IMG/VR virus record: IMGVR_UViG_2698536458_000002
Reading direction: 5' to 3' (one strand)
Origin: a virus
Taxonomy: Duplodnaviria; Heunggongvirae; Uroviricota; Caudoviricetes
DNA length: 13,968 nt
Part shown: positions 1 through 13,770 of the stretch, piece by piece
Layout of the letters: each line of letters begins with the position of its first letter
Numbering within the stretch: position 1 is the stretch's first letter
Program-made: the position numbers and the translations under genes
Notes under the pieces: model-generated
Databases searched by the model: none
The model's input: the letters and a program-made list of their open reading frames with translations, nothing else
What the model was told of the DNA's origin: nothing

Positions 1-2386
1 CCCGCCGCATCTGCGCCGGACTTCCGGCACCGCCCACATAACCACCTTCCGCATAGCCGCGCATCAGCCGGTAGAGATTCCCCACGCCAATCCGGCTGGT
101 TGCCTCCTTCGTGAAGACAAATTCACCACGGTGAACAATCCCCGCTGGCTCATATTTGCCGCCGGTTCCCGTAAATCCCCCGGTTGCAAAATGGAATTTC
201 ACCGCAGCGGCCTGAATGGCTGTACCACCTGACGCGGATGCGCCGCCACCAACAGCCCCGCCAATGGCGCTGCCGATACTCCCGACAATCCCCACCATTG
301 CCTGCTTAAGCAGAATTTCTGTCATCATGGACAGCACGGAGCGGGTGAAGCTGCGCCAGTTCTGTTCACTGCCGGTCAGCATCGCCGCCATATTCTGTGC
401 AATACCATCAAAGGTCTGCGTGGCTGCACTTTTAACCTGTGACATACTGTCCGTGGCGCTCTCTTCCCACTCACTCCAGCCGGACTTCAGGCCTGCCATC
501 CAGCTCCCGCGAAGCTGGTCTTCAGCCGCCCAGGTCTTTTTCTGCTCTGACATGACGTTATTCAGCGCCAGAGGATTATCGCCATACTGTTCCTTCAGGC
601 GCTGTTCCGTGGCTTCCCGCGCTGCCTGCCGGTCAGTCAGCCCCCGGTTTTTCGCATCAATGGCTGCCCGTTTTGCCCGTTGCTGCTGTGCGAATTTATC
701 CGCCTGCTGCGCCAGCGCATTCAGGTGCTCCTGATACGTAACCTTGTCACCAAGTGCAGCCAGCTGGCGTTTGTACTCCAGCGTCTCGTCTTTATGCGCC
801 AGCAGGGATTTCTCCTGTGCGGACAGCTGGCGACGTTGTGCCGCCTCCTCCAGTACCGCGAACTGACTTTCTGCCTTCCACAAATCCCGGCGCTGCTGGC
901 TGATTTTCTCATTCGCTCCGGCATGCTTCTCCAGCGTCCGGAGTTCTGCCTGAAGCGTCAGCAGGGCCGCATGAGCACTGTCTTCCTGACGATCGCCCGC
1001 ATACACCTTCACGCCGGACTGTTTCGGCTTTTTCAGCGTCGCTTCATAATCCTTTTTCGCCGCCGCCATCAGCGTGTTGTAATCTGCCTGCAGGATTTTT
1101 CCGTCTTTCAGTGCCTTGTTCAGTTCTTCCTGACGGGCGGTATATTTCTCCAGCGGCGTCTGCAGCCGTTCGTAAGCCTTCTGCGCCTCTTCGGTATATT
1201 TCAGCCGTGACGCTTCGGTATCGCTCTGCTGCTGCGCATTTTTGTCCTGTTGACGCTGTTGATCTACCCTCTTTTGGGCTGCATCCCGCTCCAGGCGTTT
1301 TTTTTCACGATCATCCCAGTAACGCGCCCGTGCTTCATCGTTAACGAAATAATCATCCTTGCGCAGATTCCAGATGTCGTCTGCTTTCTTAAACGCAGCC
1401 TCTGCCTTAATCAGCATCTCCTGCGCGGTATCAGGACGACCAATATCCAGCACCGCATCCCACATGGATTTGAATGCACGTGCAGTCCTGTCTGCCCAGG
1501 TCTCCAGCGTGCCCATGTTCTCTTTCAGGCGGCGGGTCTGGTCATCAAACCCTTTCGTTGCGGCCTCGTTCGCCGCCTGCAATGCCCCGGCTTCATCGCC
1601 GGAACGCTGCAACTGAGCAACATACGCAATCTGCTCCGCCGTCACGTTATGGAACTGGCGTGCCATCGCCGTCAGCCCCGACGTCGGGTCTGTGGTCAGC
1701 TTCCCGAAGGCTTCAGCGACCTTGTCCACCTCCACGCCGGATGCATAGGAGAAACGCGCCACACTCTGGCTGATGGACGCAATCTGAGCCTCACCGCTTA
1801 CCCCCGCCTTAACCAGTGCGCTGAGTGACTCGCTGGTCTGGTTAAACGTCAGCCCTGCCGCCTGCCCGGCTCTGGACAGGACCAGCATACGATCTGCCGT
1901 CAGTCCCGCCTGATTACCGGAAAGGACCAGCGTTTTGTTGAAATCGGACAGGGTTGAGTTGCCCTGATACCAGGCATACGCCAGCGCACCGGTCGCCACC
2001 GCCAGCGAGGTGGCCCCCACCATCGGCAGGGTGATCGCGCCGGCAAGCCCCCTGAACATGGGGATCATCCCGCCGAAGGAGTCCTTAACCTGACCACCCT
2101 GTTGCAGCAGGATCAGCCAGGGATTCTGCCCCCCTGCAAGCTGCGTGGCCACGTCGGTGAACTGTGCAGGCAGCATACGCATGGCGGCTTTATACTGCCC
2201 GACGGAAATCCCCGCTTTCTGTGCAGCCAGCGCCTGTCGGCTCAGCGACTGTTCAACGACTGCCGCTGTTTTTTTCGCATCACTTTCCGTACCGGAAAAA
2301 TGACGCCTGACTCTGGCCATCTGCTCGTCAAATCTGGCCGCATCCAGACTCAAATCAACGACCAGATCGCCTACCGGTTCAGCCAT
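1..2386 (-). CDS. H: Tail tape-measure protein H, 3'-truncated by the window start (about 795 of about 853 codons present)
   Basis: Minus-strand ATG at 2386..2384 gives MAEPVGDLVVDLSLD..., matching lambda gpH from memory. The frame stays open to base 2. Start lies 8 nt inside the T frame end, as in lambda. No single ORF-track entry because the frame runs off the window. Confidence 0.9.
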   Translation of the reverse strand, partial: MAEPVGDLVVDLSLDAARFDEQMARVRRHFSGTESDAKKTAAVVEQSLSRQALAAQKAGISVGQYKAAMRMLPAQFTDVATQLAGGQNPWLILLQQGGQVKDSFGGMIPMFRGLAGAITLPMVGATSLAVATGALAYAWYQGNSTLSDFNKTLVLSGNQAGLTADRMLVLSRAGQAAGLTFNQTSESLSALVKAGVSGEAQIASISQSVARFSYASGVEVDKVAEAFGKLTTDPTSGLTAMARQFHNVTAEQIAYVAQLQRSGDEAGALQAANEAATKGFDDQTRRLKENMGTLETWADRTARAFKSMWDAVLDIGRPDTAQEMLIKAEAAFKKADDIWNLRKDDYFVNDEARARYWDDREKKRLERDAAQKRVDQQRQQDKNAQQQSDTEASRLKYTEEAQKAYERLQTPLEKYTARQEELNKALKDGKILQADYNTLMAAAKKDYEATLKKPKQSGVKVYAGDRQEDSAHAALLTLQAELRTLEKHAGANEKISQQRRDLWKAESQFAVLEEAAQRRQLSAQEKSLLAHKDETLEYKRQLAALGDKVTYQEHLNALAQQADKFAQQQRAKRAAIDAKNRGLTDRQAAREATEQRLKEQYGDNPLALNNVMSEQKKTWAAEDQLRGSWMAGLKSGWSEWEESATDSMSQVKSAATQTFDGIAQNMAAMLTGSEQNWRSFTRSVLSMMTEILLKQAMVGIVGSIGSAIGGAVGGGASASGGTAIQAAAVKFHFATGGFTGTGGKYEPAGIVHRGEFVFTKEATSRIGVGNLYRLMRGYAEGGYVGGAGSPAQMRR

Positions 2387-3217
2387 ACCGGACTCCTCCT
2401 GCGATCCCTTCTGATACTGTCATCAGCATTACGTCATCCTCCGTCATGTCCGCCACATCCGGGGAAGCGGGGATAACTTCATTCCCGTCCGGGCCAAAGC
2501 GGACACCTCCGGCAAGCCCTGCCGCTTTCTGCATCAGCACATCATCTTCAGGCTCTTCGTCAGCCTCGCGCCGGTTCAGCAGACTGAAATCCAGCGGATG
2601 CATCTCCGGATCGCTGAAAAACAGGCTGAGCACGGTGTACGTCAGCCCGGAAAAGTGCATATCCAGCAGAACATCATGAAAATAATGGGTACTGTAAAAG
2701 CGGTGCCAGTCGGCATACTCCGTGGATGACATCCCGGCAAGCATGGCGCGCCAGTCGGGTCGCCCCATCTCACGCGCCAGTTTCAGGGCAAAACTCAGCT
2801 CACCGTCGAACACTTTCCCGCAGAAACAGGCTCTGCAGGCCCGGCGTCCTCTGCCTGTTCAGGAGCATCATTCACCACAAACTCATACATACCGGACAGC
2901 CGGTACACCACGTTTTCAGCATGAGAAATTGCCTCTGTGGGCCAGGTGGTAAGCACTTCCTGCTCAATCTGTTTAACGGCTTCATTCATGGACGGCATCT
3001 GCGTCTTCTTCGGATGGTTATGCCACAGGGACATCGCAACCACAAAAGCGCCGGTTCTGATGGCGTCTTCCACAGTAAACTTCCGGTTGCTGTCTGACTC
3101 CGCCTGTTCTGCCTGCCGTTTCATCAGGTCGAGATGCTCAATACGCTGCAGGGCTGACAGTTCAGAAAGCGTGACGGTCACACCGTTATGTTCAAATGAT
3201 TCGGTTTTCAGGAACAT
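2379..3217 (-). CDS. Tail assembly chaperone G-T fusion, made by -1 programmed ribosomal frameshift from G into the T frame
   Basis: G frame 3217..2795 contains the slippery heptamer G GGA AAG (plus strand CTTTCCC at 2813..2819) in zero-frame register. The -1 frame continues as ...GKVFDGELSF... to a stop at 2379 (ORF track 2379..2813). The T frame has no plausible independent start. Confidence 0.85.
2795..3217 (-). CDS. G: Tail assembly chaperone G (140 aa)
   Basis: ORF track 2795..3217, MFLKTESFEHNGVTVTLSELSALQRIEHLD...; length and sequence match lambda gpG. 15-nt gap after the V stop, as in lambda. Confidence 0.95.
   Translation of the reverse strand: MFLKTESFEHNGVTVTLSELSALQRIEHLDLMKRQAEQAESDSNRKFTVEDAIRTGAFVVAMSLWHNHPKKTQMPSMNEAVKQIEQEVLTTWPTEAISHAENVVYRLSGMYEFVVNDAPEQAEDAGPAEPVSAGKCSTVS
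2813..2819 (-). other. -1 programmed ribosomal frameshift slippery heptamer (G GGA AAG) for G-T synthesis
   Basis: Heptamer read directly in the zero frame of G at codons 133-135, 6 codons before the G stop. Confidence 0.85.
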
Positions 3218-3232
3218 CGCTGACTCTCCGGA

Positions 3233-3916
3233 TTAACTGGCGGTGACGTTGATTTCTGCAACCGCAGCAAACTCACCATTACCAGATACGACCGGAATGT
3301 TGACCTTGCCTGCAGCAACACCTTTCACGGTGATGGTCATACCACTGACCGACACGGTGGCTTTTGTTTTATCCGCAGACACCGCACGGAAGCTCTTGTC
3401 GGTTGCGCCATCCGGCTGGAATGCCACGGTCAGCGTGGTGCTCTGCCCTTTCACTACGGAAGCACTGGCGGGTGTCACCGTCATGCCGGTCGTCGCCGTC
3501 ACCGTGCTGCGATCTTCTGCCATCGACGGACGTCCCACATTGGTGACCTTCACCGTGCGGGTAATCACCTCCTTCGCCGTCACCGCCTTACCGATACTGC
3601 TGACCCAGCCACGGAACACATCGACCGTGCCGTTCGGGAAGCGGATTTTATAGGCACGGGTATCACCTTCATTAAACCACGCCAGCAGCGCCTGCTGCCC
3701 CTGCTCTCCGGGCATCCACGCCAGCGTGAAATCATCGAGATAGCTGTCGTCATAGGACTCAGCGGTCAGTTCGCCGGGCGTCAGGTCTTTAACTTTTGCC
3801 AGACGCGACCAGTCAACGTCTGAAAGCGGGTTCGCATAAGGGTCACCGCTCCCCTTATAAACCCACAGGGTGGTCCCGGCACCTTTCACCGGCATTGTAG
3901 GATTTGGTACAGGCAT
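3233..3916 (-). CDS. V: Major tail tube protein V (227 aa here, about 19 residues shorter than lambda gpV)
   Basis: ORF track 3233..3946; the real start is the internal ATG at 3916 ([22 protein letters not shown]...), preceded by GAGGA at good spacing. C-terminal Ig-like region ...[19 protein letters not shown] is present. Confidence 0.93.
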
Positions 3917-3923
3917 AGCGTCC

Positions 3924-4319
3924 TCACATTTCATAGATAATGACATAAGTCAGATCGGCTGAACTCCACAGGCCCGCATCATCGTCGCGCCGGTAGTCAT
4001 AGCCGCTGGCCACCATACTGGTGATCAAATCTGACAGTGCCGGGATATCGCTCATCACCGGATAAATCCGGGACTCCATCCACGAATCCAGCTCTGAATC
4101 CGGCACCTGAGCAGGCAGGAAAACTTCGATATGCAGCTCCGCCTGCCAGGTATCGCTGTCCAGCTCTTCGCCCGTGTATTCAGCGCCGGTGAGATAAACG
4201 GCAATTGCCGGAAAATCTTCCTCATCAAAAACAGCGGGGCGACCATCAAAAAGCGTCGCCCCGGTGTCATGCTTCTCCAGTGCATCCAGTACGGCTGCAC
4301 GGAGTTCAGTATGTTTCAT
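3924..4319 (-). CDS. U: Tail terminator protein U (131 aa)
   Basis: ORF track 3924..4319, [48 protein letters not shown]...; matches lambda gpU. 4-nt overlap with the Z stop. Confidence 0.95.
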
Positions 4320-4894
4320 CGCTTTATTACCATTCTCAGTTGATGCTGCAGCGCATAGCCCAGCTCTTTCGGAAGACGTTCACGCCGTATCCGTTCAATA
4401 TTCTGTTTAAACGCCGTGGTCAGCGGCACCGCCATCGGGATTTTCACCACATCAATGGGGTAACGGTTTTTCCCGGCCACACGCTGCATAACATGCCACC
4501 GGCCGTTTTTCAGTTGCTGAATAAACGCGCCGGGAATACGACGGTTACCCACCACAAGCACGCTGCCGCCACCTTTCAGGGATGAACGCTGCCCCTTTTT
4601 ATGACGCCTGCGGCGGGACAGGACAACCCGCGCATTACCCAGCTTGATTACGGGCAAATCCCCCCGGTTAACTTTGATTCTGGCCTGCGGATTTTTGACC
4701 GTGGCCCTTTTCAGCCTGGCCCTTTCCTTTACCAGTTTCCGGCGTACCTTTGTCTCACGGGCAACCTGTGACGCAGACTGCGATATCGCGGATGAAGCAA
4801 CGCGGTTAATGGCCATTGCGGCGGCACCGGGCACCGCCGTTTTGCTGATACGGCTGAGGTTTTCAACGGCCTGCTCAAGACCTTTTATGGCCAT
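4316..4894 (-). CDS. Z: Tail completion protein Z (192 aa)
   Basis: ORF track 4316..4894, MAIKGLEQAVENLSRISKTAVPGAAAMAINRV...; matches lambda gpZ in length and sequence. Confidence 0.95.
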   Translation of the reverse strand: MAIKGLEQAVENLSRISKTAVPGAAAMAINRVASSAISQSASQVARETKVRRKLVKERARLKRATVKNPQARIKVNRGDLPVIKLGNARVVLSRRRRHKKGQRSSLKGGGSVLVVGNRRIPGAFIQQLKNGRWHVMQRVAGKNRYPIDVVKIPMAVPLTTAFKQNIERIRRERLPKELGYALQHQLRMVIKR

Positions 4895-4905
4895 ACATCC
4901 CCCTT

Positions 4906-5259
4906 TCAGCGGCGACGGTTAACGGCAGGCGGTACGCCCCGTCCAAGCCAGAGATGACAACTTCCGCCATCATCCGGCGAAACCCGATCTACCCAGAAAT
5001 TTTCCTCACCGATGGTCAGCGTGTCTCCACGCCGCAGCTGCCGCACCTCATCAGTCCGGACAAACAGGGACGGGCTGGAGCCTTCAACGCGCACGCCCTG
5101 TCCGGCATAGCTGATATTTTCAGGGTCATCAAAAACACCACGTATCACCGCACCTGACTGCTCACCGGATGTCATGGTGGCTGACGTTCCCATGTACCCG
5201 CGTATCGTTTCATCGGCGCGGGCAATGGCAGCATCGAACAGGTTATCGAAATCAGCCAC
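4906..5259 (-). CDS. FII: Head-tail joining / head completion protein FII (117 aa)
   Basis: ORF track 4906..5259, MADFDNLFDAAIARADETIRGYMGTSATMTSGEQ...; matches lambda gpFII. Confidence 0.95.
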   Translation of the reverse strand: MADFDNLFDAAIARADETIRGYMGTSATMTSGEQSGAVIRGVFDDPENISYAGQGVRVEGSSPSLFVRTDEVRQLRRGDTLTIGEENFWVDRVSPDDGGSCHLWLGRGVPPAVNRRR

Positions 5260-5270
5260 AGCGCCTCCCG

Positions 5271-5669
5271 TTATTGCATTCTGGCCAGGCCGCGCTCTGT
5301 CATTTCGGCTGCCACACCGGCAGAGACACGAAACGCCGTTCCCGGCAGCACAAATGCCACAGGTTTATCCCGCGTGGCGTGAAGTGCATCAGTATGCAGC
5401 GTCACCAGTGCCACGACCGTGACCAGTTCAGCCGTATCCTGAATCACGGTATCCGGCTGCGCTGATACCACCTCATTTTCATGCCCGGTCAGCACATTTT
5501 CCCGGCTGAGAGGGGTGTCCTGACCGGCAGTTTCATCCGTGTCATCAAGCTCTTCTTCCAGCTCTGCCACACGAAGCGCCAGTTCTTCTTTCGTTCCCGT
5601 CAAACTGACATCGCGGTTCAATTGCTCACCCAGCTCCTGAAGACGGGCAATCAGTTCATCTTTCGTCAT
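5271..5669 (-). CDS. FI: DNA packaging / head assembly protein FI (132 aa)
   Basis: ORF track 5271..5708; start chosen at the internal ATG at 5669 (MTKDELIARLQELGEQLNRDVSLTGTKEELALRV...), preceded by GGAGGAG at about 5 nt spacing. Length matches lambda gpFI. Confidence 0.9.
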   Translation of the reverse strand: MTKDELIARLQELGEQLNRDVSLTGTKEELALRVAELEEELDDTDETAGQDTPLSRENVLTGHENEVVSAQPDTVIQDTAELVTVVALVTLHTDALHATRDKPVAFVLPGTAFRVSAGVAAEMTERGLARMQ

Positions 5670-5680
5670 GAACTCCTCCA

Positions 5681-5708
5681 CAGAGAGAAAATGGCCCCGA
5701 AGGGCCAT
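5681..5708 (-). terminator. Stem-loop (7-bp GC-rich stem, UUCG tetraloop) followed by a U/C-rich tract in the E-FI intergenic region; candidate partial terminator or mRNA-stabilising hairpin
   Basis: Sense strand reads TAA-TC-ATGGCCC-TTCG-GGGCCAT-TTTCTCTCTG-TGGAGGAGTTC-ATG. Perfect 7-bp stem 3 nt after the E stop, followed by the FI Shine-Dalgarno. Confidence 0.45.
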
Positions 5709-5710
5709 GA

Positions 5711-6736
5711 TTACGCCAGTTGAACGGACACGAACTCATCAGGATCAGCCAGCAGCATCAGCGGTGCTGACTGAATCATGGTGAACTCACGCGCCGGATC
5801 GCCGGTGGTCACCCAGTTTTTCGGGTAACGGGCAGAAGCGTTAATGCCTTCGCGCTGTGCGTCCGCATCCTGAATGCAGCCATAGGTGCGCAGACCGCGA
5901 GCCTGAGTGTTCCCCAGCACCATCGTGTTGTCCGGCAGGAAGTTCTTTTTGACGCCGTTTTCCACGTACTGTCCGGAATACACGACGATGGCCACATCGC
6001 CATACATTCCCTTATAGGACACCGCTTTGCCCAGGTCTTTTACCGCTGTCTCCAGCTCGGAATGAGAGCCGCGACGGGTATCCAGCTTCTCCTTGACGGC
6101 TTTGAAGGAACGGAACAGCGCCCAGCCTTTCGGGTCAAACACGATGATATTCACCACACCGCTGGCGTTCAGCGCGTAGGCTTCGATATCGTCGGTCGGG
6201 TCATACGTGGACTTGTCACGCTTGCTCCACTCCGTGACGCCGGACTGTGTGATGTTGTTCGCCGCACTGCGGCCCATATCCACCTCAACCGGATCGAAGG
6301 CTTCACCGGTCATGGTGTATTTGCCCTTGAGCACGGCAGAAACTGCCTGCATCTCTTCGACCTGAGCAATGGCCAGCTCTTCGTCACGCATGTTCTGCAT
6401 GATGATGCGACGGCGGCGGTAAGCCGGGTCCGCCAGATTCTGCGGATCTTCATCCGGCAGGCGACGCAGGGTCATCTGCGGATTCACCTCATGCTTGGGT
6501 TTGACATATCCCGGCGTAAATTCAGAGGTGGAGCCGCCACGGGAACGGATAACCTCACCGGAAACAATCGGCGAAACGTACAGCGCCATGTTTACCAGTC
6601 CCGGAATTTGTGAGAGATAGACTTTCTCCGTAGTGAAGGGATAGCTCTCACGGAAAAAGAGACGCAGAAACAGCGGATCAAACTTAAATTTCTGCTCATT
6701 TGCCGCCAGCAGCTGGGCGGTTGTGTACATCGACAT
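5711..6736 (-). CDS. E: Major capsid protein E (341 aa)
   Basis: ORF track 5711..6763; start chosen at the ATG at 6736 (MSMYTTAQLLAANEQKFKFDPLFLRLFFRESYPFTTEKVYLSQIPG...), matching lambda gpE length and sequence. Confidence 0.95.
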   Translation of the reverse strand: MSMYTTAQLLAANEQKFKFDPLFLRLFFRESYPFTTEKVYLSQIPGLVNMALYVSPIVSGEVIRSRGGSTSEFTPGYVKPKHEVNPQMTLRRLPDEDPQNLADPAYRRRRIIMQNMRDEELAIAQVEEMQAVSAVLKGKYTMTGEAFDPVEVDMGRSAANNITQSGVTEWSKRDKSTYDPTDDIEAYALNASGVVNIIVFDPKGWALFRSFKAVKEKLDTRRGSHSELETAVKDLGKAVSYKGMYGDVAIVVYSGQYVENGVKKNFLPDNTMVLGNTQARGLRTYGCIQDADAQREGINASARYPKNWVTTGDPAREFTMIQSAPLMLLADPDEFVSVQLA

Positions 6737-6749
6737 AAAAAAATCCCGT

Positions 6750-6774
6750 AAAAAAAGCCACACAGGCGGCCTTT
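6750..6774 (-). terminator. Short hairpin plus T7 tract in the D-E intergenic region; weak intrinsic-terminator-like element
   Basis: Sense strand reads CTAAAG-GCCGC-CTGT-GTGGC-TTTTTTT-ACGGGATTTTTTT-ATG. 5-bp stem including one G-U pair, 4-nt loop, then a run of 7 T, with a second T7 run directly before the E start. Confidence 0.3.
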
Positions 6775-6791
6775 AGTGATGAAGGGTAAAG

Positions 6792-7124
6792 TTAAACGAT
6801 GCTGATTGCCGTTCCGGCAAACACGGTCCGTTTTTTCGTCTCGTCGCTGGCAGCCTCCGGCCAGAGCACATCCTCATAACGGAACGTGCCGGACTTGTAG
6901 AACGTCAGTGTGGTGCTGGTCTGGTCAGCAGCAACCGCAAGAATGCCAACGGCAGCACCGTCGGTGGTGCCATCCCACGCAACCAGCTTACGGGTGGAGG
7001 TGTCCAGCATCAGCGGGGTCATTGCAGGCGCTTTCGCACTCAATCCGCCGGGCGCGGTTGCGGTATGAGCCGGGTCACTATTGCCCAGCGGCTGGTAATG
7101 GGTAAAGGTTTCTTTGCTCGTCAT
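6792..7124 (-). CDS. D: Head decoration protein D (110 aa)
   Basis: ORF track 6792..7130; start at the second ATG, 7124 ([41 protein letters not shown]...), which has an AAGGGA Shine-Dalgarno at about 7 nt. Matches lambda gpD. Confidence 0.95.
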
Positions 7125-7133
7125 AAACATCCC

Positions 7134-7739
7134 TTACACTGGTGTGTTCAGCAAATCGTTAACGGCATCAGATGCCGGGTTACCTGCAGCCAGCGGTGCC
7201 GGTGCCCCCTGCATCAGACGATCCAGCGCAGTGTCACTGCGCGTCTGTGCACTCTGTGGTGCTGCGGCCAGAATACGGCGGGCCGTTTCCACGGTCATAC
7301 CGGGGGTTTCGGCCAGCACGCGTGCCTGTTCTTCGCGTCCGTGAGCCTCCTCACAGTTGAGGATCCCCATAATGCGACTGTTTTCTGCCGCAACCGCTGC
7401 GGTGATCTGCGCGTTCACGTCCGGCTGCGCCGCGCTGGCGTTCTCGCCCTCCGTCGCTTGCACCACGCCAGTAACGTCAGCCTGCGAAGCAGTGGCTGAA
7501 ACAGTTGTTGATTGAGTCTCTTTGGTCATTCGCCCTCCTGAGAGACGGGATTTACGTGCATCCAGTGCATCACGCATGACGGTGATCGCATCGGTACTGT
7601 TAACAAGTTCATCAGCCAGTCCGGTATCAATGGCCTCCTGACCGCTGTACACTGCAGCCTCGGTATCCAGCACAGCCTGCACGGACAGGCCGGTATATGC
7701 CGACACCTTCTGTGCAAACATCCGGCGGGTTGCATCCAT
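7134..7739 (-). CDS. Nu3: Scaffolding protein Nu3, in-frame internal start within C (201 aa, sharing the C-terminal frame of C)
   Basis: ATG at 7739..7737 is in frame with C at residue 239 (MDATRRMFAQKVSAYTGLSVQ...). The 606-nt length equals lambda Nu3. The internal start is inferred by homology, not independently visible. Confidence 0.75.
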   Translation of the reverse strand: MDATRRMFAQKVSAYTGLSVQAVLDTEAAVYSGQEAIDTGLADELVNSTDAITVMRDALDARKSRLSGGRMTKETQSTTVSATASQADVTGVVQATEGENASAAQPDVNAQITAAVAAENSRIMGILNCEEAHGREEQARVLAETPGMTVETARRILAAAPQSAQTRSDTALDRLMQGAPAPLAAGNPASDAVNDLLNTPV

Positions 7740-8433
7740 CCGGGACTGCAATGTTTCCCGGACATCATCCGGTAGATGGCTGTAGGGGTTGCCATCCACC
7801 TTATGGCTGCCGCTGTAAATCAGCGTGATTTCCACGCCCTGTTTCTCCAGTGCAGCGCCGTAATTACTGTGAGCCATCATGACGCCGATGGAGCCTGTCC
7901 GGGCGGTCTGCGTGACCAGACGCCGGGAGGCGGCACTGGCAAGCAGCTGACCTGCGCTGCAGTTCATGTCATTGGCCAGCGCCCATACCGGCTTTATGTC
8001 ACGCACACGGGCGATGATGTCAGCGCAGTCAAATGCTCCCGCCACCATTCCGCCCGGTGTGTCCATATCGAGCAGAATGCCGTCCACCATCGGGTCGCTG
8101 GCAGCCTGTTGCAGACGGGCGATAATGCCGTTGTAACCGGTCATCCCCGAGTACGGCTGCAGCGCCCGCGTCCGGCTGACCAGCGTGCCGGACACCGGCA
8201 GCACGGCGATGCCGTTCATTACCTGATAACTGCGGGCCTGTCGTGGTCCGTCATCATCACCGGATAACGCCAGCGCCGCGGGTGCCTCTCCGGCAGTCAG
8301 GCTGTCGCCGGATACTGCATCCGTCAGGCAGCTGATCCCAAGCTGGCCTGCAAGCGCACAAAAGAAAACCCGCGCATAGGCGGGTTCAAGCATCAGCGGC
8401 TCATTAAAAGCCATGCTGGCAATATGCGGGAGA

Positions 8434-8453
<20 letters not shown>
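7134..8453 (-). CDS. C: Capsid assembly protease / minor capsid protein C (439 aa, GTG start)
   Basis: ORF track 7134..8588 (484 aa). Start placed at GTG 8453..8451 (VTAELRNLPHIASMAFNEPLMLEPAYARVFF...), giving the lambda gpC length and the lambda-like 20-nt overlap with the end of B. Confidence 0.88.
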
Positions 8454-12134
<3,681 letters not shown>

Positions 12135-12160
<26 letters not shown>

Positions 12161-12680
12161 TCAGCAACCCCGGTATCAGTTCATCCAGCGCGGCTGCTTT
12201 GTTCATGGCTTTGATGATATCCCGTTTCAGGAAATCAACATGTCGGTTTTCCAGTTCCGGAAAACGCCGCTGCACCGACAGGGGGATCCCGTCGAGAATA
12301 CTGGCAATTTCACCTGCGATCCGCGACAGCACGAAAGTACAGAATGCGGTTTCCACCACTTCAGCGGAGTCTCTGGCATTTTTCAGCTCCTGTGCGTCGG
12401 CCTGCGCACGCGTAAGTCGATGGCGTTCGTACTCAATAGTCCCTGGCTGGAGATCTGTCTCGCTGGCCTGCCGCAGTTCTTCAACTTCCCGGCGCAGCTT
12501 TTCGTTCTCAATTTCAGCATCCCTTTCGGCATACCATCTTATAACGGCGGCAGAGTCATAAAGCACCTCATTACCCTTGCCACCGCCTCGCAGAACGGGC
12601 ATTCCCTGTTCCTGCCAGTTCTGAATGGTACGGATACTCGCACCGAAAATGTCAGCCAGCTGCTTTTTGTTGACTTCCAT
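12135..12680 (-). CDS. Nu1: Terminase small subunit Nu1 (181 aa; cosB-binding winged-helix N-terminus)
   Basis: ORF track 12135..12680, MEVNKKQLADIFGASIRTIQNWQEQGMPVLRGGGKGNEVLYDSAAVIRWYAERDAEIENEKL...; matches lambda gpNu1. Confidence 0.97.
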
Positions 12681-12704
12681 TGTTCATTCCACGGACAAAA
12701 ACAG

Positions 12705-12899
12705 AGAAAGGAAACGACAGAGGCCAAAAAGCCCGTTTTCAGCACCTGTCGTTTCCTTTCTTTTCAGGGGGTGTTTTAAATAAAAACATTAGGTTACGGC
12801 GAAGAAGAACGGAAACGCCTTAAACCGGAAAATTGTCATAAATAGCGAAAACCCGCGCGCCTTCCGCCCCGTAACCTGTCGGATCGCCGGAAAGGACCC
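12705..12899 (-). other. cos region, joined form: cosB (R1 12705..12720, R2 12746..12761, IHF site I1 about 12771..12800, R3 about 12801..12820), cosN (12858..12869), cosQ (12893..12899)
   Basis: Reverse complement reads ...GGGTCCTTTCCGGCGATCCGACAGGTTACG-GGGCGGAAGGCG-CGCGGGTTTTCGCTATTTATGACAATTTTCCGGTTTAAGGCGTTTCCGTTCTTCTTC..., then the R2 and R1 elements (AGAAAGGAAACGACAG and its inverse) and the Nu1 ATG. Flanks match the lambda cos region from memory. Confidence 0.85.
12858..12869 (-). other. cosN cohesive-end segment (12-nt overhang position), variant sequence GGGCGGAAGGCG where lambda has GGGCGGCGACCT
   Basis: Position fixed by identical flanking sequence on both sides (GACAGGTTACG upstream, CGCGGGTTTTCGC downstream). 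Confidence 0.7.
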
Positions 12900-13068: not shown

Positions 13069-13302
13069 ATGTCAACGAAGAACAGAACCCGCAGAACAAC
13101 AACCCGCAACATCCGCTTTCCTAACCAAATGATTGAACAAATTAACATCGCTCTTGTTCAAAAAGGGTCCGGGAATTTCTCAGCCTGGGTCATTGAAGCC
13201 TGCCGCCGGAGACTGTGCTCAGAAAAAAGAGTTTCGCCTGAAGCAAACAAAGAAAAGAGTGACATTACTGAATTGCTCAGAAAACAGGTTAGACCAGATT
13301 GA
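13069..13302 (+). CDS. YlcI/YnfO-family (DUF3950) small ribbon-helix-helix-like DNA-binding protein, 77 aa, with a divergent C-terminal tail
   Basis: ORF track 13069..13302, MSTKNRTRRTTTRNIRFPNQMIEQINIALVQKGSGNFSAWVIEACRRRL...; the N-terminal 48 residues match prophage YlcI/YnfO proteins from memory and have an RHH-like strand-helix-helix pattern. Weak AGGG Shine-Dalgarno 7 nt upstream. Confidence 0.8.
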   Translation: MSTKNRTRRTTTRNIRFPNQMIEQINIALVQKGSGNFSAWVIEACRRRLCSEKRVSPEANKEKSDITELLRKQVRPD

Positions 13303-13359
13303 AGCAATTTAGATAATCGTGCAGACTACGCCCCCTCATATCACATGGAAGGTACTACA

Positions 13360-13770
13360 ATGGCTCAGGTTGCCATTTTTAAACAAATATTCGATAAAGT
13401 GCGAAATAATTTAAACTATCACTGGTTTTATTCTGAACTAAAACGTCACAATGTCTCACATTACATTTACTATTTAGCCACAGAGAATATTCATCTTGTT
13501 CTTGAAAACGATAATACGGTTTTAATAAAAGGACAGGGTAAGGTTGTAAATGTAAGATTTTCAAAAAATAAATGCCTTATAGAAGCCACCTTAAAAGGAT
13601 TCAAATCAGGAGAGTTATCATTTTACGAATACAGGAAAAATCTTGCTACAGCAGGGGTTTTCAGATGGATTACAAATATCCACGAAAACAAAAGGTATTA
13701 CTATACCTTTGATAATTCATTACTCTTTACTGAGAACATACAGAACACTACACAAATATTTCCGCACTAA
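13360..13770 (+). CDS. DUF1398-family protein (YdfO/YbcV-like), 136 aa, AT-rich accessory gene; alternative upstream ATG at 13345
   Basis: ORF track 13345..13770 ([63 protein letters not shown]...). The ATG at 13360 is preferred because of a GGAAGG Shine-Dalgarno 7 nt upstream and the 136-aa family length. GC content is much lower than in the structural genes. Confidence 0.8.

Follow-up and report, generated by a model that had tools for sequence, protein, structure and literature searches.

Late genes and flanking genes of the window

The stretch of DNA analyzed here (the window; 13,968 nucleotides of the IMG/VR virus record IMGVR_UViG_2698536458_000002, Caudoviricetes) carries a lambda-like late region on its minus strand. 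Comparison with the lambda genome (NC_001416) by BLAST revealed 97.9% identity over lambda nt 13-9140 and 97.1% identity over nt 9198-12877. From Nu1 onward, every late protein is a full-length match to its lambda counterpart with 90-100% protein identity, except for H, which is cut off by the window end with 794 of its 853 residues included, and a shortened V. The terminase had been predicted to be near-identical to that of lambda, and the two adjacent terminase genes, both intact and full length compared with lambda, bear this out. The Nu1-type TerS (181 aa; 12135..12680, minus strand) is 98.3% identical to lambda Nu1, with the substitutions K48R, A75T, and L132I, and matches the Pfam family Phage_Nu1 (E = 2e-101). 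The gpA-type TerL (641 aa; 10235..12160, minus strand) is 99.5% identical to lambda gpA and differs from it by T151S, D185E, and T466I. Its Pfam domains are GpA_ATPase (residues 47-285) and GpA_nuclease (residues 322-600), and T466I falls within the nuclease domain.

Two further features of the window were recorded. Gene V, encoding the major tail tube protein (ORF 3233..3946, minus strand), has a 57-bp in-frame deletion at 3730/3731 that removes gpV residues 63-81 (19 residues, EDADWTATGQGQKSAGDTS) compared with lambda and with the 99.96-100% identical contig L155; a flanking repeat is not evident. A second copy of the deletion junction was absent from more than 200 fetched loci, 22 of which carry the full-length sequence, and a search for the junction in E. 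coli returned two-piece matches only, among the matches listed. The window copy may be tail-defective through this deletion, unrelated to cos, or the deletion may be an assembly artifact. Upstream of cos, on the strand opposite to the late genes, lie genes for a DUF3950 protein of the YlcI/YnfO family (13069..13302, plus strand) and a DUF1398 protein (13345..13770, plus strand), at the position occupied by bor and lambdap78 in lambda. Chromosomal lambdoid prophages typically have this arrangement, for example those of E. coli 582 (locus L004). In a megablast search of complete E. coli genomes, the best identity to the whole window was 98.3%.

Subsites of the cos region

The minus-strand sequence of the cos region runs ...GGGTCCTTTCCGGCGATCCGACAGGTTACG / GGGCGGAAGGCG / CGCGGGTTTTCGCTATTTATGACAATTTTCCGGTTTAAGGCGTTTCCG..., where the slashes delimit the predicted overhang. 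The heptamer GGGTCCT (12893..12899, minus strand), which we take to be cosQ (lambda nt 48473-48479), lies upstream of cosN, beginning 30 bp upstream of overhang bp 1, with the same sequence and position as in lambda. The 7-bp cosQ is strongly conserved (PMC4669245). On the other side of cosN, the cosB repeat R3 (AGGCGTTTCCGTTCTT; 12805..12820, minus strand) occupies bp 50-65 from the overhang start; it matches lambda at 16 of 16 positions and keeps the lambda distance to cosN, in line with the published R3 coordinates and the cosN-R3 spacing requirement (PMC9026076). The R2 16-mer (AGAAAGGAAACGACAG; 12746..12761, minus strand; bp 109-124) and the R1 16-mer (12705..12720, minus strand; bp 150-165), an inverted copy of R2, are likewise the same as in lambda.

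The window thus shares with lambda the cosQ-cosN-cosB architecture, the CG dinucleotides flanking the nick sites, overhang bp 1-6, the repeats R3, R2, and R1, and the cosN-R3 spacing. The lambda site differs in having CGAC.T in the overhang where the window has AAGG.G, in placing R2 and R1 1 bp farther apart, and in having A rather than C at bp 35. The shorter R2-R1 distance of the window reflects a 1-nt spacer indel (GAAAACGGGCTTTTT vs GAAAGCGAGGCTTTTT; 12705..12761). Located between cosN and R3, the change at bp 35 from the overhang start (window position 12835; A>C, giving ATGACAA instead of the lambda ATGAAAA) is a recurrent polymorphism, present at 10 loci with the overhang variant described below and at the lambda-type site of E. 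coli 20AR0354. Beside the overhang, the left 50 bp contain four mismatches to lambda and the right 50 bp contain one; the original prediction had described the flanks as essentially lambda.

The cohesive-end segment

The cosN cohesive-end segment, a predicted 5' overhang at 12858..12869, reads CGCCTTCCGCCC on the plus strand by direct sequence read and hence GGGCGGAAGGCG on the minus strand (12869..12858). Its lambda counterpart is GGGCGGCGACCT. The lambda record starts with GGGCGGCGACCTCGCGGG and ends with ...GGGTCCTTTCCGGTGATCCGACAGGTTACG, its last bases being GGTTACG; the lambda cohesive end given when the anomaly was first noticed was therefore right. The two overhangs differ at bp 7 (C>A), 8 (G>A), 9 (A>G), 10 (C>G), and 12 (T>G), whereas bp 11 and the entire left half (bp 1-6) are the same, for a total of seven identical positions out of 12; both the five clustered changes and their coordinates agree with the original prediction. 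The cosN core (12856..12871, minus strand) consists of the overhang and two CG dinucleotides beside the nick sites, both of which are intact (...TTACG/GGGCGGAAGGCG/CGCGGG). With a 12-bp segment that resembles GGGCGGCGACCT and keeps its left half, the site falls within lambda-like cosN as defined previously (PMC4669245).

The cluster of five changes exceeds chance. At 2.06% divergence, the value for the head and tail arm compared with lambda (187 of 9,128 positions), the probability of five or more differences in 12 positions is 2.6e-6, and ~0.003 such 12-mers are expected in the window as a whole; the 5% divergence of the cosQ-side flank would give ~0.2. Replacement of the 12-mer as a unit is supported more strongly by its recurrence in identical form in many other elements (see below) than by this calculation. 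The overhang has a G+C content of 10/12, similar to that of the lambda overhang, and the nearest-neighbor melting temperatures of the two alleles (55.8 vs 57.5°C) correspond to similar predicted duplex stability.

Occurrence of the AAGGCG right half in other genomes

The occurrence of the variant right half (bp 7-12, AAGGCG) was assessed in complete E. coli genomes with a 53-mer megablast probe, to which a lambda-type cosN offers no exact word of the 28 bases needed for a match. The probe matched 159 of 5,426 complete genomes, with coverage of 80% or more of its length in 84 of these, and a lambda-like cos region with any allele was present in 3,510. The same 12-mer with the same flanks occurs in E. 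coli APEC E14033 (Korea), 582 (Czechia), YZ22PE68 (China), and ETEC1721 (Belgium), and the exact 12-mer was also found at loci L003, L004, L005, L006, L008, L009, L010, and L012. Among plasmids, 58 records matched the 53-mer in blastn mode. The 12-mer was read directly in the 46-kb plasmids pRHBSTW-00124_4 (E. coli, 100% identity) and pEC21Z151-46K; matches to the probe at 96.2% in Shigella sonnei and E. albertii plasmids, and at 100% over 50 of 53 bases in one E. fergusonii plasmid, imply that the allele is probably present in these species as well. In a collection of one genome per species, a 20-mer scan found a single true cos, that of Escherichia sp. E1V33, the other 15 matches being chance matches in G+C-rich genomes. 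An 18-mer across the site was found in 86 IMG/VR contigs, two of which (L140 and L189) are chance matches in G+C-rich DNA. Among phage records with this type of cos, two of 75 (PhiR46_1 and YDC107_1) have the AAGGCG allele. A full-text literature search for the 12-mer returned an unrelated plant paper as its sole match.

These data bear on the suggestion that the overhang reflects a sequencing or assembly error or an engineered change. Five clustered changes amid a region ~98% identical to lambda, together with the lack of a 100% match to the 111-bp cos segment in any complete E. coli genome, could point to an error. However, the identical 12-mer with identical flanks occurs in independent assemblies from five countries (Korea, Czechia, China, Belgium, and the UK) and in ~80 IMG/VR contigs, and four IMG/VR contigs (L155, L192, L199, and L210) share 99.8-100% identity with the window across cos, as far as their partial sequences extend. 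The lack of a 100% match to the 111-bp segment is due to the A>C change at bp 35, itself a recurrent polymorphism of variant and lambda-type sites. With the same 12-mer in so many unrelated genomes and contigs, we regard an error or engineered change as almost certainly not the explanation.

To place AAGGCG among other right halves, IMG/VR was searched for the context ACG-GGGCGG-N6-CGCGGGTTTTCGC, in which the left half is invariant by design of the search. Among the matches listed, the lambda right half CGACCT occurred at least 116 times, AAGGCG at least three times, and CGACCG at least once. Fuller counts were obtained from targeted IMG/VR scans that excluded the lambda allele: AAGGCG was found in 78 contigs, CAGGCG in four, CAGACG in three, AGACCT, GAGCGT, and TGACCT in two each, and AAGCGT, AAGGCT, CTGACG, and CGACCG in one each. 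AAGGCG is thus by far the commonest non-lambda right half and has few, rare one-step neighbors. The rare alleles were seen in PhiR70_1 (L011) and at the IMG/VR loci L236-L252; CAGGCG lies one step from AAGGCG, and therefore a sparse allelic series joins the two common forms. When the anomaly was noticed, it had been asked whether this exact cosN would prove common in functional lambda-like phages. The cosN sequence GGGCGGAAGGCG is a recurrent minority allele of natural origin; it is not the majority sequence.

Genomic contexts and plasmid prophages

The AAGGCG allele occurs with three cosB/TerS classes and more than 10 different cosQ-side flanks. The first class has R3 of the lambda type, the second a 181-aa Nu1-like TerS, and the third a different TerS; the last is apparently the class whose TerL has only 64% identity to gpA. 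Of the 170 places with the AAGGCG allele in complete E. coli genomes, 16 are plasmid-borne, compared with 27 of 6,001 lambda-like cos places overall. The allele is therefore strongly enriched on plasmid-form elements and predominates among the lambda-like cos sites carried by plasmids (16 of ~27).

The phage PhiR46_1 (L244; PV340565.1, 1-46290), an N15-like linear plasmid prophage, has a complete 46.3-kb genome that combines telL/telR, ParAB, and primase genes with a complete lambda-type head and tail module. The PhiR46_1 gpA shares 99.5% identity with lambda gpA and 99.4% with the window gpA and has the T466I substitution, and the Nu1 of this phage is 93% identical to lambda Nu1 and 92.8% to that of the window. 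PhiR46_1 represents a family of ~46-kb N15-like linear plasmid prophages (also L008, L010, and L012) in which a lambda-type module replaces the terminase and cos of N15. YDC107_1 is a deposited phage genome classified as Ravinvirus. The GenBank host field of PhiR46_1 (ECOR13) and a record series that includes lambda and mEp332 suggest that PhiR46_1 was propagated as a plaque-forming phage. In both phages, the overhang and the first 22 bases of the right flank are the same as in the window; the R3 region of cosB was read in PhiR46_1 only. They differ from the window in being telomere-bearing plasmid prophages with the cosQ-side flank GGCAGGCTACG, whereas the window has the DUF3950 and DUF1398 genes found in chromosomal lambdoid prophages.

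Terminase proteins associated with the two cosN alleles

An intact TerL ORF of 630 aa or more lies downstream of 40 of 45 variant sites, compared with 44 of 57 sites of the lambda type; since it is at least as frequent after the variant, the AAGGCG allele is not a marker of decay. This result addresses the proposal that the cos is inactive or crippled, with the five changes beside the right nick blocking gpA, and that the prophage is a decaying remnant. Such a proposal draws on the extent of the right-half change (five of six bases, one of them bp 12, which adjoins the nick), on the private 57-bp V deletion in the window copy, and on the phage record collection, in which no record starts at an AAGGCG overhang, PhiR46_1 and YDC107_1 having been deposited in prophage order. 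It is at odds with the spread of the allele across many unrelated genomes, several Escherichia species, and plasmid prophages spreading by infection, and with its presence in deposited phage genomes. In the window itself, the remaining cos subsites are as in lambda, the packaging and head genes are intact, and the late genes match those of lambda, and right-half changes are phenotypically silent in published data (PMC4669245). A crippled cos in a decaying prophage is therefore very unlikely.

Another possibility is that the variant functions only with a co-adapted terminase, in which gpA variants extend the nuclease specificity to the new right half. Mutations of gpA that extend its endonuclease specificity have been reported, and the T466I substitution in the nuclease domain of the window gpA is shared with PhiR46_1. 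Covariation was analyzed in a TerL alignment of 88 sequences from variant and lambda-type loci with enough downstream sequence, plus lambda gpA as the reference; the covariation subset was restricted to gpA proteins more than 95% identical to lambda gpA (40 variant and 35 lambda-type loci). No gpA column in this subset separates the two cosN classes, and no nuclease-domain residue is associated with the cosN allele. Of the carriers, 14 of 40 with the variant and 7 of 35 with the lambda-type site have I466 (p = 0.2). Weak associations were seen only at gpA residues 9 and 21, whose codons lie a few hundred bases from cos; these associations probably reflect linkage. The same gpA protein does occur in nature with both cosN alleles: four gpA protein alleles are common to both types, and one of them is identical to lambda gpA itself (variant locus L178). 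In addition, the AAGGCG allele adjoins the TerL that is only 64% identical to gpA. In the absence of a discriminating residue in the alignment, co-adaptation of gpA and cosN was rejected, and dependence of the variant on a specialized terminase appears highly improbable.

Published tolerance of the cosN right half

Differences at bp 7-12 are common in lambda-like phages (Feiss et al., 2015; PMC4669245). N15 and phiD326 differ from lambda at bp 9 and 12, Gifsy-1 differs at bp 8, 9, and 11 (PMC4669245), and mEp213 and LLS have the overhang GGGCGGCGCGCT (PMC12315714). By direct read, the N15 sticky end is GGGCGGCGTCCG and differs from lambda only in the right half; its G at bp 12 is common to N15 and the window. 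All of these phages resemble the window in that variation is confined to bp 7-12 while the left half and the flanking CGs are kept, although the window, with five of six right-half positions changed, exceeds each of the named alleles. Selection keeps cosQ, the left half, and the CGs flanking the nicks, which are conserved in lambda-like phages, but not bp 7-12 (PMC4669245).

Genetic data point in the same direction. Many right-half mutations have a minimal phenotype, whereas the symmetric left-half mutations are severe (PMC4669245); for example, G2C lowers the yield ~10-fold and the symmetric C11G has no effect (Xu and Feiss, 1991, in PMC4669245). This asymmetry between the halves depends on how close the right half lies to cosB (Hang et al., 2001, in PMC4669245), and the TerL that nicks between bp 12 and 13 is assumed to be held in place by R3-bound TerS, the cosN-R3 spacing being critical (Feiss, 2022; PMC9026076). 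Lambda terminase gives equal yields with the lambda and N15 cosN sites (PMC4669245).

The published tolerance covers single changes and the two-change N15 allele. This range leaves room for a site that is functional but mildly impaired, with a lower efficiency of cutting or packaging, and that persists by linkage or drift; the minority status of the allele (~159 genomes vs ~3,500 with a lambda-like cos) could be read in the same way. A deleterious allele would, however, be unlikely to spread over several cosB/TerS classes or to become the main plasmid-borne form, and one or two right-half changes had no measurable effect in published work (PMC4669245). Mild impairment is accordingly an unlikely explanation, in our judgment.

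Interpretation of the variant cos

Based on sequence comparisons, the cos of the window is very probably a working lambda-type site that carries a natural alternative cohesive-end allele. The recurrence of the allele, the intact subsites, the lack of covariation with gpA, and the deposited phage genomes were observed directly in this work, while the insensitivity of nicking to the right half is drawn from the literature. Extrapolating from one- and two-base changes, we infer that the five-change overhang would be cut with normal efficiency. In the proposed mechanism, Nu1 would bind R3, R2, and R1 of cosB and thus place one gpA nuclease center for bottom-strand nicking between bp 12 and 13, while a second gpA, directed by the conserved left half, would nick the top strand to the left of bp 1. 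The right-hand nick would be set by the distance from R3 rather than by reading bp 7-12, which would leave these positions free to vary. The chromosome ends would stay complementary because both are cut from the same cosN sequence, and cyclization should be unaffected because the overhang keeps 10 of 12 G+C positions. The allele would behave as a 12-bp unit transferred among lambda-like phages. Of the earlier suggestion of a natural cohesive-end variant with a different nicking tolerance, the first part is upheld, but an altered tolerance is not needed, the wild-type terminase being already insensitive to the right half (PMC4669245). Published work already accounts for such variation, and the allele is an ordinary one.

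The two common right halves, CGACCT and AAGGCG, might conceivably act as compatibility types that partly restrict recombination and cross-packaging between lambda-like prophages sharing a host, although we consider this speculative and rather unlikely. Recombinants with an odd number of crossovers between lambda-type and AAGGCG-type phages would have ends mismatched at five of 12 positions and would cyclize poorly, and the same mismatch would arise when the chromosome of a polylysogen is packaged from one cos to a heterologous downstream cos. For comparison, two mismatched end positions reduce the yield about four-fold (Feiss et al., 2015; PMC4669245). If such a barrier did exist, it could help explain the persistence of one discrete alternative allele with few intermediates and its concentration in the N15-like plasmid-prophage lineage.

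In practical terms, search tools that rely on the exact lambda sticky end miss the ~3% of E. coli genomes that carry the AAGGCG allele, and an overhang that differs from GGGCGGCGACCT at bp 7-12 is no ground for annotating a lambda-like prophage as cos-defective. The large natural sample analyzed here confirms the genetics of Feiss and colleagues, according to which the right half of cosN is free to vary and nicking is positioned from cosB.
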